A stretch of 64,000 nucleotides of DNA from Naegleria gruberi. Its lineage: Eukaryota. The notes below the pieces were generated by a model that worked only from the letters and a program-made list of their open reading frames with translations, had not been told where the DNA came from and searched no databases. The stretch lies in the NCBI GenBank assembly GCA_000004985.1, contig GG738873.1. One strand, given 5' to 3'. A program made the translations under genes and the position numbers. Shown here piece by piece: positions 1,368-40,900 of this stretch; the stretch's first letter is position 1; every line of letters starts with the position of its first letter.

Positions 1368-4046
1368 ATGAAAAAACAACACAACAGCAAGGTGAGAAAA
1401 TCCATGAATCCCTCCTTGTTATCTTCTCTCTTGCCAACACCAACAGCATCATCAACAACTGAAGATATTTCTGAGGAGCCAACAGATTCCTCTCCTATTA
1501 GAGAAACAACAACAACAAGAAGGAGAAATAATCATGCAACAGTAGTATTGGCAATTGATGAGGAGGAGAATGATAATGATGATGAGGAAGTAAATGATGA
1601 AATTGGATTATCCATTGCAAAGAGTGAGATTTCCCTCCGAACACTTCCAATGATTAATTCAATAGAAAAGGATTTTTCCGATGATGATGAAGATGATGCA
1701 GATGAAGCCTTTGATGATTTGAATGAAGAAGAAGAAACTCTATTATACTATCGGAGGGATGACACTGTGAGTGAGGATTCATCTACTGGAGCAGCTGCTT
1801 CCTCTGCTATCAATGGAGGATTTAATTCATCATCAAACAATGCTACTAGAGGAGTCTCTAATCCTCTTCTCGTAACATCAGAAGCAACAAATCCAATTCT
1901 TAATTATGGAACTGAAAAGAAGAAGAAAAAGAAGAAGAAGAAGAAGAAATCAGACAAGGCCAAATTGGATTTACAATTCATGATTCGGTTTTTCAAAATA
2001 ATTGGATATTGTCTGAGGGATATTGGATATAATAGTGATTATCATTGGACTGATGAGAATGGAAGAAGAGTTTCCAGATTGTTTTCAAGAAAACGAGTCG
2101 TGCATGAATTGAATCAATCAGAGAAGAAGGGATGTGGAGCATTTTGTTACAACTTTTCATTGTTTAACGTGTTTTTGGTGGTTCTCTTCTTGCTTATTTG
2201 CATTGGAGAGATTTTACTGGGAAATGAAGTTGGTAAATTACCTGGAGCTTTCTATACTGTAATTATTGATGCGAGTTCTAAGAATTTTGGAGATGCCAAA
2301 CCATTTATTCATGTCATGTTGACAAGTTTACTTTGGATTTGTGGAATAACAGCTCTGAAAACTTTTAGACAATTTATTTTGGATGTTATTCGAGTTTATT
2401 GGAGAAGAAATTTAACTTATCATACACAGAGGAGATATTTCGAGAATAGTAACTTTTACAAAATGTTGTTACTTGATAAGAGAATTGATAATCCAGATCA
2501 AAGAATTACCAAAGATGTAGAGAATTTTGTAGATATGACTTGTAAATTAATTGAGAGTGTTTTCACAGGACCAATCACTGTATTTTACTATACTGTCACT
2601 GTGTTTATGAATTTGGGTTGGCAAGGGCCTCTTTTCTGCTTTGTCTTTTTCATTATTGGTTCCATTTGTAACAAGTTGATTATTTCACCAATTGCTAATT
2701 TGTGGTTTATTCAAGAAAAGTTTGAAGGAAATTTCAGATATACTCATGCATTGTTAAGATCAAATGCAGAGTCTGTTGCCTTCTATGGAGGAGAATCAAA
2801 TGAAAAGATCAAGTGCAATCAAAAGTTGAAAGGAGTAATCAAGAATAGAAGAAAGATTGTTGTGTGGAATTTACTCTTGAATGGAAATATGAATTTATTT
2901 GGTTATGTTGGAAGTATTTTGGCATATGTGATTGTTGCCATTTCTGTATTCTTGATTGGTGGATTTATTGATGCCAATGCTACAGCAGGTGAAATTGCTG
3001 GCAAGATTTCTGTTGTAAGTATTCTTGATTGTGTAAATTAACATGTGCAGTCTTCATTCCAAGTAATGATGCTCATCTATGGTTTTACCACCTTCATTCA
3101 GACTGGTGCTAATATTTCAGAACTTGCTGGTTTTACTGGAAGACTCGGTGAAATGTACGAAGTGATGAATGAAATTGAGAAGGATACTGAATTGAATAAT
3201 ATTGGAAAGGTTACTGAGGAACACTCACTTTTGGAATCAACAACATCCAATAATAATTATCAACAAGAATCGGATAGATCTGGATCCACCGATACTAACG
3301 ACGTGAACTATATTGAATTTAAGAACGTCTCTGTATCTGTTCCAAAAGGTATCAGAGAAAAGTACAGAACCAATCACAACCTTGTTGAAAATCTTAGTTT
3401 CAAGATTTTACCAACTCAACACACTTTAATTGCAGGTCCTAGTGGTTGTGGTAAATCATCAGTTTTAAGAATTTTGGCAAATTTGTGGCCAAACAACTCT
3501 GGACAAATTATCAAACCGTCCACAACTCTTGGAAACAGTTCGAAACCAAATATTTTCTACGTTCCTCAAAACCCTTACATTTCCAGTGGTTCGCTAAGGG
3601 ATCAAATTACTTACCCACTCAAAACTCCAAAGAGAAATGTGGAAGATCATCCAGCTCTCTTAGAAGCCATTCAGCAGTCTCGACTCGAATATATTCTCGA
3701 ACGAGTTCATAAGAAGGATTGGGATGGTGAGTGTAATTGGAATGAATTGTTGAGTCCTGGAGAGAAGCAACGTTTAGCTCTTGCTAGAATCTTTTATCAC
3801 AAACCTAAATTTGTAATTCTCGATGAAGCAACCAGTGCTTGTGATGTAAATGTTGAAGAGATGATTTATCGTGACATTATCAAACAAGGATCTACAGTCG
3901 TTTCAGTTGGCCATCGTCCAACCATTGTGAAATTCCACACTCACATGCTTAGACTGAATGGATCAGCCTCAACTTTGGAAAATGCTAAAGGATGGGAATT
4001 TGGAGAAATTTCAGAATTCAGAACGAAAAAGAAGAAGAATTATTAA
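1368..4046 (+). CDS. abcD: peroxisomal-type ABC half-transporter (ABCD subfamily); exons 1368..3014 and 3051..4046 joined across a 36-nt GTAAGT..CAG intron
   Basis: Two ORFs (1368..3041, 3045..4046) join in frame once the intron 3015..3050 (gtaagtattcttgattgtgtaaattaacatgtgcag) is removed. The product has a TM domain with an EAA-like loop, a Walker A box (GPSGCGKSS), an ABC signature (LSPGEKQRLALAR) and a Walker B box (FVILDEATSA). It also has a long acidic/poly-Lys N-terminal extension. Confidence 0.85.
1918..1948 (+). repeat. (AAG/AAA)n coding microsatellite (poly-Lys K12) in the ABCD N-terminal extension
   Basis: The tract gaaaagaagaagaaaaagaagaagaagaagaagaaa encodes EKKKKKKKKKKKK. Confidence 0.6.
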
Positions 4047-4085: not shown

Positions 4086-4745
4086 TTACATTGTATATTT
4101 TGTTTCAAATTCCTTCCTTTCCATTCGCCTTCTCAAATTCCTCTTCATTCTTTCCCTTAATTGTTTTTGTTTCCTTCTTATTCTCTCTGGAGTTATCAGT
4201 CGTTGAATTTTCACACCTTTCACATCGGATTTCTTACAAATTTTGACATTTCTCTTAATGACAAACTTTCTGACATCGTCCTCTTTTGAGAGATTGAATA
4301 ATTTCCGTATTTTTGAAGCTCGTTTAGGTCCAAGAGTTTTGTGTTTTGGATCATCAGTGAGGCCAACAATTACATGAGCTGGAGATTTGATTAATTTCAA
4401 AGAAACAGCAGAAACTGAACGATCCAGGAAACATCCCATTAAGGTTTTTCTTCTCCTTTCTCCATCTCTTTTTCTCCAACATTTCTGAAATCCAAATTCG
4501 CCTGCCCTTAACAACGGACTAATTTTTCCAATTTTCAATATTGTAGGATGACACTGTTTACCATTGTTATTGATAGCAGCTGTGATTTTAAATTTACAAT
4601 TTGCCAAATCAGGAATATTCAATATATCACCAGAAATGCATTCTCCAATTCTTTTTCCAAGAAATGGAAATGATTGATAGTACAAATCTGAAGTTTCGTA
4701 TACTTTTGTTTGACTAGTGAGTGGATTTGATACTTGAAGCTTCAC
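4086..4745 (-). CDS. rps6: 40S ribosomal protein S6 (eS6)
   Basis: The 219-aa ORF aligns along its whole length to eukaryotic S6 (KLQVS..., GKRIGECISGD, GFQKCWRKRDGERRRK, LGPKRASKIRKLFNLSKEDDVRKFV). Its first codon is GTG, not ATG; see findings. Confidence 0.85.
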   Translation of the reverse strand: MKLQVSNPLTSQTKVYETSDLYYQSFPFLGKRIGECISGDILNIPDLANCKFKITAAINNNGKQCHPTILKIGKISPLLRAGEFGFQKCWRKRDGERRRKTLMGCFLDRSVSAVSLKLIKSPAHVIVGLTDDPKHKTLGPKRASKIRKLFNLSKEDDVRKFVIKRNVKICKKSDVKGVKIQRLITPERIRRKQKQLRERMKRNLRRRMERKEFETKYTM

Positions 4746-4789
4746 AGAATTGCATTCTATTCATCTCGGAATCAATTTTGAAAACTTAC

Positions 4790-4969
4790 CTTTCTCAAAT
4801 AATAATACTTTGGTTGACCTGAATACGTAGCCCTGTCAGCCATCTGTTCTTGCATGTTGACATCCTGTGAAAAGTATTGTATTCCTCTCGAATATTGATC
4901 ATCAAGTCTATTTATTGGCTTTGATGATGCTGGTTTGCCAGGCATTGAAAGTTTGCTTCTTCTGTACAT
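4790..4969 (-). CDS. 60-codon ORF (MYRRSKLSMPGKP...YYYLRK) ending exactly at a GTAAGT donor; candidate 5' exon of rps6 or an independent small ORF
   Basis: An ATG at 4967-4969 follows an A9 run. The frame ends ...AGA AAG|GTAAGT at 4790. A 50-nt intron (4740..4789) with an AAG acceptor would splice it in frame to the S6 body at 4739. Confidence 0.3.
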
Positions 4970-5020: not shown

Positions 5021-6244
5021 CTACCAGTAGATCAAATGAGTTATTTTCCTAATTTCTTCAAATTCTATTAGACATTCCTCAAAATTAGCAATAAATTCAT
5101 TAGATTCTGAATCGTCAATTCGATCCACGAGTCGATCGACCTTCTTTACAAGATTCTTGACCTTCACTTTATCTTCTTCTTGGAATAGTTTGCTTGATAT
5201 TCTATTGAGATGAACAATTTCCTCTTGTAAATTATAAATCAAGCCAATAATACCCAATTCTTCACTCCAAATTTTTCTAAATTCATTCAGAGAAATCATT
5301 TCATCCTCAATTGGATACAGAAGATAACTTCCAAGTCGATGGTTCTTAAAAAGCAATTTGAATAATCTTGATTGACCACTTGGAACCAAAACTCCCAATG
5401 TAATATTCGTTTCAATAGTTCTGTGTGCATATTCCAACCAATATTTCAAATTCACATTCAATTGAGAGATTTTTGAATCACTCAATAGAATATTTTCCAA
5501 AACCGATGGGTGTATTTGATCCCTAATTGAGATTTCAAGAATTTGCCTATCTTTTGAGTTATAGACATGTCCAAGTCTTAATTTGTAATATTCACAGTCG
5601 ATTTCTTCTAGATTAGGCAATAAACTGATGATTGGATTGAAAACCTCTTGGAAATCAAAGGAAGGAAATGAAATGAACATTTTGGTGATTGTTCTGAATT
5701 CACTAGGAATTGCTGGTTGTCTAAGTTTCAAGTCAAATGTCAATTTCATTGTTTCTATTAGAGGATTTAATTCTCTGTTTTCTTGAAGGCAATCCTTTAG
5801 GTATGAAATATCACAGGCAATGAGTTTCTGGATTATTTCTTTGTTTTTCTTTGACTGGAACAAATCTTTCACATTCAAAGTTATTGATCCAATGTGTTCT
5901 TTCAAACGATCATTCAAAGTTTTTTTGGAATCAGTTTCTTCTTGAATGACAGCAGTTTTCTCAACTTGAATTTCTGGTAATTTTTCTTCCACCTCCTTAT
6001 CAACTATTTGCTCAGCTTCATTCCCATGTCCAATCAATTCCAATTCCTCTTCATGTTGGGCAGTTATTGTCTGTTGTTTGGATTCGATAGCACAACCAGA
6101 TAAGCCATGATTGGAGAGATCAAGAGTTTGTGTCTCCTTTTGATTTGTGGCAGGAGAACAACGTGCGTGAAGATAAACTTTATAAATCCAGAGGAACAGT
6201 TGAGGATCTTGCGTAATTTGTGAAAAGAGTGTGTCTGTTGCCAT
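5021..6244 (-). CDS. hypothetical protein (407 aa)
   Basis: Long minus-strand ORF with an A-rich ATG context (caaaaaaaATGgc). I recognised no domain. Confidence 0.55.
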   Translation of the reverse strand: MATDTLFSQITQDPQLFLWIYKVYLHARCSPATNQKETQTLDLSNHGLSGCAIESKQQTITAQHEEELELIGHGNEAEQIVDKEVEEKLPEIQVEKTAVIQEETDSKKTLNDRLKEHIGSITLNVKDLFQSKKNKEIIQKLIACDISYLKDCLQENRELNPLIETMKLTFDLKLRQPAIPSEFRTITKMFISFPSFDFQEVFNPIISLLPNLEEIDCEYYKLRLGHVYNSKDRQILEISIRDQIHPSVLENILLSDSKISQLNVNLKYWLEYAHRTIETNITLGVLVPSGQSRLFKLLFKNHRLGSYLLYPIEDEMISLNEFRKIWSEELGIIGLIYNLQEEIVHLNRISSKLFQEEDKVKVKNLVKKVDRLVDRIDDSESNEFIANFEECLIEFEEIRKITHLIYW

Positions 6245-37977: not shown

Positions 37978-40900
37978 TCATCTTCTCCTTCTTCTTAATT
38001 GGTCAAAAACTGAATTATTCAAAATATCCTGTGCTTGAGGTCTGATGGCACTGTCCTTTTCCAACATTGATAAAGTCAAGTCAATGATATATTGAGAATA
38101 TTGACCAGGCTCTTCCATTTTCTTCTTTAATAATTGTGAAACTTCCTTTTGATCCTTAGTGACATAGAGTTGACTAATTGATGTAAAAGTGTCCTTAGTT
38201 ATTATTTGATAAATAGTTACACCTAAACTGTAAATATCAGTGTTATAGAAATACTTGCCACCATATCCCAATTCTTTAAAAAACAATTTAAAATTAATGT
38301 CAGTTATCTCTTAATTACTTACCAGGTGACATGAATAGAGGAGTGCCAGCATATGAATTATTGGTAGAACCTTGATTTGCTTTGGCCAATCCAAAATCTG
38401 CAATAACTATTTCAATATTATCCTTATCTAAACTCTTTACAAAAATATTGGATGGTTTGATATCTCTGTGGATGAGTTTCATTGAGCTGTGAATATAATC
38501 AAGAGCGCTACACATTTGGAAAATGATTTGCAATAATATCTGTTCTGAACATGTAGAATCATCTTTGGTCAATTGAACCAAATCTCCCAATTCATAAAAG
38601 TCCATATCAATACACAACAATTGATCCTTACTAATAAAAAAGTCATTAACCTTAAGAATATTTGAATGGTGAATATTCATCAATTGAGTTCCTTCCTTCA
38701 TAAAATTATTCAACTCCTCTGTTGATGTGTATTTGATTACTTTGATTGCCTTCATGGTGTTTGTTTTGGAATCAAAAGCTTTGAATACTGAACCAAAGGC
38801 ACCTTGACCAATTTTAACCAAGTCCATATATCTTGAGAGTGGATTGAAGGATTGACTGCTACCTCCAGTAGATGAGATACTAGTGAGAGGAGTCAAAAAC
38901 ATACTGGCATCTGATGGGAAATCACTTGATTGACCAAGCTCAATATTTTGAATAGTTTGAAGTTCGTACGCTTTTTGAGATTTTAATTTCCAAACACAAA
39001 CTGAAAATACCACTACAATAATAGCTATGATAATTATTGCAATCAACACAACTGGAATTGTAACACCAAGGATGATACCAAGAGTTTGATCATCAATGGA
39101 TCTGGGAATTGAGTTAGAAACATTAGGTGCATAATAATAAGCAAGTTCTTGAACTGTGAATAGAGATAAGTGATTAGTGACACATTCCAAATTGAAATAG
39201 AGTTTACCTTCCTCTCTTTTGACAATTGTCATTGATTGAGTCAAAATACCAGAATTAGACCAAGTTTGTTTCACTGAATCATAGTAACTGCATGAAATGT
39301 TAGTATCTGTCTTGTCATTTGTAAACAAATTATTGAACTTGATTGAAATTGGTTTTGTAAGGCCACTGACAGGTACTTGAGCTCCACTTTCTTGACTATA
39401 AATGGATAATTCAAAAATTGGTCTATTTTCAAGAATGTTATTTAGTGTGGTATCCTTCTTGATCAATGAAGAGCTGTAGAATAATTTGACATTGTTTGGA
39501 ATACTTAATTGAGAAGTAAAATCGGATGGGAAACTGGCCGAAACTTGAATAGTATCTTCAATCATTATAGAAATTTCCTTTCCATTCAATTGAGTTTCCA
39601 AATCCAGACTTTCAAGTGAATAAGTCCCCAATGTATTATTCGTAGTCAACCCACTCAACAATAAATATTTAACTTGATATCCTACAATGAGTGATTGTTT
39701 CTCTAATTTTGAGGAAAATCTCTTAATCAAAATAGATTGTAAATTTGATAGCTCAGTATAGTGAGTTTCGTCCAATAGAGTTAATCTTAATGCAGAAGTA
39801 TAGTACTGCTTGGATTTGTCCATTCCTGAATAAGTCCAATCAAGCCACTTTACAAGATTATCAGTCATGGAATTGATGGAATTTTCATCTTGTAAAGTGA
39901 GATCGAGAATTGAGAAAATATCACAAATTATTGGAAGGACCATTTGAATAAGTTTTTCATCGACTTTGGATGTCAAACTCTGTACATTATTTAGGAGTGA
40001 TAGCATTTCATTCAAATTGGAGTTTAGAGTTTGAATTTGAGAATTGGAAGTTTCGGTAAACAATCTTCCAGTGAAATTTTCAAAATTAGTTTCGTTTAAA
40101 AGGAGAATTGACATGAGGGAATTAATGGAATTGACAGTTTCAATCTTCAATGGTTCTACTCTTTTTAAAGTATAAAATTGATCATTTACATAATTCAGTT
40201 TAGACGAAATTGAGTTTGTAATCGAATTTGGAGCTTTCATTGTAATTGTTCTTGTAAGCGTTCCAATAGATCCATATCTATTGACAAGTTTTACAACGAG
40301 ATTTAAATCTGAACCATCTCTACTGAGTGGAAGTCTGGTTACAAGGTTTTTCTTTAGAGTGTTGGAAAGAATTGATATTCTTTCTCCTTGTTGAGAATGA
40401 ATTTCCATTACATAATTCGAAACTGGTTCTGAAGGTAAATTGAGACAAGAAATGGTCATGAAGCTTTCGAATGCATAATTAACAGCTTCGTTTCTTAAAT
40501 TGTAATAGGAACATGAAAATCTTGGAGTATTGTCAATTCTTGTGGAAAGTGAAATATTCGATTGACCAAACTCATTCCAAGTTGACAACTCAAATGAATA
40601 AAATTCACCATCAATCAAATATTCATTTCCAATATTCAACTCTGATGTAACAGAATTACCACCAACATTTCTAATGGTTTCTCTATTTCTCAAGAATTCG
40701 TCCACATTCTCACCCACTGCAACATTCAATCTTCCTTCCACCAATTTCCAACTTGTTGTAACACTAGAAGTAGAAGAAATAAGAGTCTTTAAAACCAATG
40801 GACGATGACTAGCATGAATAGGAGGTCTATAAGGGCTACTAAGTTTTGGAGCTTGAATGGATGAATCAGTCAACTTGATAAAACCAATGAAATTGTAAGG

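Follow-up and report, generated by a model that had tools for sequence, protein, structure and literature searches.

A probable two-exon gene for a divergent, N-terminally extended eS6 paralogue in Naegleria gruberi

An S6 reading frame without an ATG

The stretch analysed here, 64,000 nucleotides of Naegleria gruberi contig GG738873.1 (assembly GCA_000004985.1; hereafter the window), carries on its minus strand a reading frame for an S6-type ribosomal protein that opens with GTG (4745-4743), AAG (4742-4740) and CTT (4739-4737). This places V-K-L exactly where canonical eS6 has M-K-L (residue 1 of the frame aligns with residue 1 of nearly all solved eS6 proteins). No ATG lies in frame upstream of the GTG, where TCT, AAT, TGC, GAA and ATA are met before the stop TGA (4763-4761). 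Where, then, would translation of this gene begin, and what protein would it yield? A sequence-only reading of the window had noted the missing ATG and proposed an in-phase splice from an upstream 60-codon ORF, with initiation at the GTG, an A-to-G assembly error or an ATG mini-exon as fallbacks. When the minus strand was re-read, its description of the GTG-AAG-CTT opening, of the upstream ORF ending AAG|GTAAGT at 4790 and of the 50-nt interval between them proved accurate.

The upstream ORF runs from an ATG at 4969-4967 to ...TTG AGA AAG|GTAAGT, with its final exon base at 4790, and joining 4790 to 4739 takes out exactly 50 nt (GTAAGT...GTGAAG) while keeping the frame. The resulting model comprises, all on the minus strand, a start codon at 4967..4969 preceded by a run of A (ttgAAAAAAAAATG / ttgaaaaaaaaATG), an exon 1 coding part at 4790..4969 (60 codons, MYRRSK...YYYLRK), a spliceosomal phase-0 intron of 50 nt at 4740..4789 (GTAAGTTTTCAAAATTGATTCCGAGATGAATAGAATGCAATTCTGTGAAG) and an exon 2 coding part at 4086..4739 (217 codons plus a TAA stop, LQVSNP...ETKYTM*). 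The modelled mRNA junction reads ...TTGAGAAAG|CTTCAAGTA and the protein sequence that spans it ...YYYLRKLQVSNPL..., with the last codon of exon 1, AAG (K), at the position of K2 in canonical eS6. An A-run also stands before the ATGs of two other genes in the window, an ABC gene and a 407-aa gene, and the latter ends, with its stop at 5021, 51 nt ahead of the S6-like ATG.

We consider it likely that the locus is a two-exon N. gruberi gene (exon 1 4969..4790, exon 2 4739..4086) for a divergent, N-terminally extended eS6 paralogue of 277 aa. Translation would start at the ATG at 4969 and the 50-nt phase-0 intron (4789..4740, GTAAGT...AAG) would be removed, leaving a product in which a 59-residue lineage-specific extension is fused to a complete eS6 fold (...YYYLRK|LQVSNP...). 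The lysine of the mature K-L would come from the last codon of exon 1 and not from the intronic AAG. On the splice model as a whole, the GTG-AAG is in all probability no start codon but the six 3'-terminal bases of the intron, translated as though they continued into exon 2, with the GTG (4743..4745) at positions -6 to -4 relative to the 3' splice site.

The 407-aa ORF that directly precedes the S6-like gene (5021-6244, minus strand) has no Pfam match. On the plus strand, the ABC gene (1368-4046) encodes an ABCD-type half-transporter (PF06472 plus ABC_tran) with a low-complexity N-terminal region that includes a run of 12 lysines, and its only stop is carried by a 36-nt in-frame intron at 3015-3050 (GTAAGT...TTAAC...CAG). 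A variant genetic code was considered for such in-frame stops and rejected, as this stop lies within a GTAAGT...CAG intron and the stop upstream of the S6 frame likewise lies inside an intron. G+C in the window is 0.25-0.28 between 50000 and 54000 and ~0.33 elsewhere.

Extended eS6 paralogues and their gene structure

The reading frame matches Pfam PF01092 (Ribosomal_S6e) with E=2.5e-28 and 98.9 bits against a cut-off of 26, over profile positions 1-125 of 125, and its residues 1-214 are collinear with residues 1-209/214 of the solved Plasmodium, yeast, plant and human eS6 proteins (E down to 6e-37); exon 2 holds a complete eS6 fold from the equivalent of canonical residue 3. The earlier statement that every eS6 begins M-K-L stands for canonical eS6, including that of Naegleria (P0010, MKLKIS), and fails for the extended paralogue clade described below. 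For the window protein, ...L-R-K-L-Q-V-S is predicted after 58 further residues; the lack of an M-K-L start speaks against a canonical eS6 and not against membership of the eS6 superfamily.

Naegleria gruberi possesses a separate canonical eS6 (EFC44004.1 / NAEGRDRAFT_68050), which clusters at 90% identity with the canonical proteins of N. lovaniensis and N. fowleri; in N. lovaniensis the canonical gene lacks introns and opens with ATG-AAG-TTG. The window protein is 39-42% identical to the canonical eS6 of Naegleria and Willaertia, and the extended paralogues as a group 38-48%, compared with 79% between the canonical proteins of the two genera. Judged by its sequence, the window gene does not represent the one canonical eS6 gene of the organism. 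It differs from that gene by a 59-aa extension in place of the initiator Met, by an intron at the boundary corresponding to codons 2 and 3, and by strong divergence in the N-terminal half of the fold, whereas the C-terminal half is almost invariant between the two proteins. Because the block PKRASKIRKLFNLSK-DDVRK-VIKR...KGVKIQRL-TPERIRRK is identical or nearly so in the extended paralogues and the canonical protein, we infer that the window protein, like the other extended paralogues, may have kept its place at the eS6 site of the 40S subunit and may serve there as an alternative isoform.

The nearest proteins to the window protein come from N. gruberi (P0007), N. lovaniensis (P0003 and P0008), N. 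fowleri (P0009) and several metagenomes, and all of them carry 45-60 extra N-terminal residues. The annotated extended paralogues are N. gruberi XP_002670307.1 (NAEGRDRAFT_74747, 286 aa), N. lovaniensis C9374_007606 and C9374_014249 (280 aa each) and N. fowleri FDP41_010695 (P0009); among named genomes, extended proteins are found in Naegleria species only. A neighbour-joining tree of the S6 domain (11 sequences, BLOSUM62 distances, no bootstrap) separates the extended paralogues from canonical eS6 as a single clade, which contains at least three subfamilies; the window gene belongs to this clade and has one of the family's longest branches. One subfamily unites the window gene with the metagenomic locus L001 and with L009, another P0003 with L006, and a third P0008 with the N. 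fowleri protein, with L008 nearby; P0007 branches on its own. The window gene and L001 make up a subfamily of their own, with 44-50% identity to the remaining named paralogues over the S6 domain. Taken together, the sequences point to the extended eS6 paralogues being a fast-evolving clade.

Intron positions in the relatives were determined by mapping the annotated proteins back onto their genomic loci. The closest homologue, L001 (70% identical over the S6 domain), has an ATG preceded by an A-run, a homologous 63-codon exon ending ...TTG AGA AAA|GTGAGT, a 45-nt intron and an exon 2 that starts ATT CAA GTT (IQV); no synteny was found between the window and L001, which leaves strict orthology unproven. 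The two N. lovaniensis loci, L002 and L003, have exactly one intron each, between residues 58 and 59 and in the same alignment column (124 and 172 nt, with donors GTGAGT and GTAAGA, respectively, and TAG acceptors). A 103-nt intron occupies the same boundary in N. fowleri (L005), the metagenomic L006/L007 are arranged likewise, with an intron of 211 nt, and the L009 contig starts inside its intron and reads ...TTGTAG|TTC CAA ATT at the same acceptor site. The A-run precedes the exon-1 ATGs of L001, L002, L006 and L008. The annotated Naegleria paralogues thus resemble the window gene in having an exon 1 of ~58-60 codons with a homologous extension, a phase-0 intron and then the eS6 domain.

In the metagenomic L008 (ENA ERZ27315067 k141_1751343, 303-1127), an intron-less extended S6-like member of the family, extension and S6 domain form one uninterrupted ORF, which shows independently that the two belong to one polypeptide; either the L008 lineage lost the intron, or the gain of the intron postdates the divergence of that lineage. 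With the exception of L008, a phase-0 intron separates the extension from a conserved [LFYI]-Q-[VIL], and the window gene shares this arrangement (its junction YYYLRK|LQVS aligns with NYYHQLK-FQLA in a paralogue). Before this motif the extended clade has R-K, L-K, R-R, H-H, R-H or N-K, and ahead of these residue pairs lies the extension of 45-60 aa. Comparison with S6 from related species, which the sequence-only reading had itself put forward as a check, therefore backs its upstream-exon model: in the relatives a homologous exon 1 precedes an intron placed at the identical codon boundary.

The extension itself is conserved in a limited set of positions. In the window protein and the annotated paralogues it follows the motif P-x-[KR]-x-[LI]-D-x3-G/S-x-G-[FYWI]-x-[HYF]-x2-[QE]-D-x-[DN]-[VLIM], and D23 and G29 are invariant in the alignment, where the window's KPINRLDDQYSRGIQYFSQDVNM stands against NPLKRLDLLVGSGFEHMRQDVDV and KPLRKLDLAFGRGFDHMREDPDV. 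The window extension, which contains the peptides LDDQYSR, GIQYFSQDVNMQEQMADR and ATYSGQPK, is the most diverged, with S-R-G-I-Q-Y-F-S-Q-D where the other paralogues have G-R-G-F-[ED]-H-M-R-[QE]-D. An extension profile that included exon 1 of the window gene had only three matches in a set of 1.84 billion representative proteins, each of them either an S6-like gene or the orphaned exon 1 of one, and searches of Pfam, NCBIfam and PDB profiles gave no significant match. Fragments of the arenavirus L endonuclease were considered as homologues of the extension and dismissed (best PDB E-value 0.13, regarded as chance). AlphaFold gives no confident structure for residues 1-55 of the extension (pLDDT 31-45), and its first confident beta-strand begins at residue 60 of the spliced protein, in the S6 core.

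Three independent species pairs show purifying selection on exon 1. For the window against L001, dN/dS is 0.52 for exon 1 (p=0.037) and 0.24 for exon 2 (p=1e-14); between N. lovaniensis L003 and N. fowleri L005 the values are 0.49 (p=0.041) and 0.21 (p=7e-16), and between N. lovaniensis L002 and L006 0.32 (p=0.0014) and 0.21 (p=2.5e-16). Indels in exon 1 comprise whole codons, and exon 1 is ~75% identical as opposed to ~49% for the introns, which are not conserved. The proposed N-terminal extension is upheld by this selection and by the homology of the upstream ORF to the extensions of the annotated paralogues.

How do the fallback explanations fare against these data? None of the relatives has a GTG or an ATG at the position of the window GTG, making initiation at the GTG, an A-to-G error and a mini-exon alike unnecessary, and the comparison lends support to none of them. 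On the first, an unspliced or internally initiated transcript would be translated from GTG 4745, a near-cognate start codon at exactly the canonical M-K-L position, to give a 219-aa eS6, and the upstream ORF would be an unrelated small gene or uORF. We regard this as very unlikely. In L001, L002 and L003 the codon directly before exon 2 is a TAG stop, with the consequence that the S6 domain there cannot initiate alone; moreover, the supposedly unrelated ORF is homologous to paralogue extensions and under purifying selection, L008 has it joined to the S6 domain within one ORF, and the extension profile matches S6-like genes only. A sequencing or assembly error, with A read as G at 4745, would need just one base change to turn the start into ATG-AAG-CTT and restore M-K-L, and the deposited model is flagged partial. 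Given the intron, however, no such error need be invoked, and it would leave a conserved, selected exon 1 that ends at a GTAAGT donor without a role, which makes it extremely unlikely. An ATG mini-exon further upstream that supplies only the initiator Met is an arrangement known from ribosomal protein genes of yeast, microsporidia and nucleomorphs, and nothing specific to this locus favours it. It strikes us as barely credible here: the acceptor at 4740 calls for a preceding exon with a phase-0 end, and the conserved 60-codon ORF already runs up to the GTAAGT donor at 4789; the space up to the stop of the next gene (5021) is filled by exon 1 and 51 nt; and a long exon 1 is present in all family members.

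The 3' end of the intron

We surveyed the window for other introns, taken as donors soon followed by a stop that join two long ORFs. Some 10 clear cases were found, 36-80 nt in length with one of 203 nt, with GTAAGT, GTATGT or GTGAGT donors and with CAG or TAG acceptors apart from a single AAG (38322..38274). A 50-nt GTAAGT...AAG intron is therefore within the range of the window, with AAG as its least common acceptor (1 of ~10 other introns). The exception at 38274-38322 on the minus strand is a 49-nt intron ending in AAG (…TTTTTTAAAG|) within a very long gene (>2,300 open codons upstream), and its branch motif lies 20-26 nt upstream of the AAG.

The 3' end of the S6-like intron is atypical. 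Its sole yTrAy, the branch-site-like motif TTGAT (4771..4775, minus strand; branch A at 4772), lies 32 nt before the AAG acceptor, and two AGs intervene, one in GAG (AG at 4766-4765) and one in TAG (4757..4759), the latter 17 nt upstream of the AAG. None of 12 comparison introns has an AG between its last branch-like motif and the acceptor used, and the window gene is the only family member with an AAG acceptor and a competing upstream TAG. By the rule that the first AG downstream of the branch point is used, the TAG would be chosen and the product truncated: the junction ...GAGAAAG|AATGCAATT shifts the frame and gives a 64-aa product ending ...LRKNAIL*. No significant RNA structure that could mask the TAG was found (z=0.25). 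We postulate that the TAG could compete with the weak AAG acceptor, although the branch point may instead be a non-consensus site nearer the AAG. Splicing may also be partly unproductive, perhaps as a regulatory device, or the N. gruberi copy may recently have been damaged. That the N. gruberi mRNA is spliced at the AAG is our inference from the gene model. Neither the spliced 277-aa product nor the TAG-spliced 64-aa or unspliced 65-aa products had an exact match in the protein collection, and the exon-exon junction pattern gave 0 matches in a scan of metagenomes and metatranscriptomes.

These features raise the alternative that the N. gruberi copy is decaying or mostly non-productive, such that splicing at the TAG, or retention of the intron, would yield a 64- or 65-aa peptide and the S6 domain would be made rarely or not at all; in a variant of this explanation, competition between TAG and AAG would amount to regulatory unproductive splicing. 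The two AGs that follow the only branch-like motif, the rarity of AAG acceptors in the window, the truncating TAG junction and the long branch of the window gene are all compatible with it. We nevertheless consider it unlikely. First, exon 2 has stayed intact over 217 codons in a 33% GC genome, and its dN/dS against L001 (0.24) indicates constraint, though a pairwise ratio is blind to very recent loss of function. Second, exon 1 is likewise intact and has a normal start context. Lastly, another clear intron of the window, the one at 38322..38274, uses an AAG acceptor, with its branch motif at the shorter distance given above. A productive two-exon gene remains our preferred reading.

Public gene models and comparison with known systems

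In the public record this gene is EFC43541.1 / XP_002676285.1, a 'predicted protein, partial' of 218 aa that is 100% identical to the S6 frame and starts at the lysine after the GTG. The match to N. gruberi also disposes of a microsporidian or nucleomorph source, which the tiny introns had at first suggested. On the splice model as a whole the public model has quite probably missed exon 1, and should be a complete, two-exon protein of 277 aa. Models of other family members show irregularities of their own. The annotated start of N. fowleri FDP41_010695 is an internal ATG (MTDWKD), and at 1375-1554 of L005 (GCA_008403515.1, VFQX01000006.1) the exon-1 ORF runs upstream to an ATG at 1375 (MVRLEKGPYKVRAPMSRPLRNLDLLFGRGFDHMRE...), matching the N. 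lovaniensis orthologue; judging from this sequence, the annotated model probably lacks 42 codons at its start. In L006/L007 (1236-2310; ENA ERZ2098899, Logan SRR29240419), prokaryote-style calls have cut the gene in two: exon 1 became a separate 62-aa 'gene', and the S6 part a 269-aa ORF that opens with ~40 residues of translated intron. P0121 and P0122 seem to be artefacts of a similar split.

What is new here is a lineage-restricted, N-terminally extended eS6 paralogue family; searches of the literature for Naegleria eS6 paralogues and for the accession numbers returned nothing relevant and no description of the family. The analysis corrects a public gene model and suggests that Naegleria retains, beside its ordinary eS6, several additional copies of this core 40S protein that are diverging rapidly. 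Though modest, the finding may offer a tractable case for ribosome heterogeneity in a free-living or pathogenic protist lineage. A bolder reading, which we hold to be rather unlikely, is that the novel N-terminal domain of the at least three fast-evolving eS6 subfamilies of Naegleria gives a subset of 40S subunits a new function, or serves an extraribosomal role, and that competition between the AAG (productive) and TAG (unproductive) acceptors controls the window copy. Were it true, the role could be tied, for example, to differentiation between amoeba, flagellate and cyst, and the locus would be a case of splicing-coupled regulation of a ribosomal-protein paralogue.

Both aspects of the predicted protein have counterparts among ribosomal proteins. 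Duplicated or specialised paralogues are known in vertebrates (RPL3L, RPS27L) and in Drosophila (RpL22-like), where likewise an extra, diverged copy is kept beside the canonical one. Ribosomal proteins with an N-terminal fusion are also known, namely ubiquitin-eS31 and ubiquitin-eL40, in which a polypeptide is similarly added at the N-terminus, but the Naegleria extension is not ubiquitin-like and has no detectable homologue.
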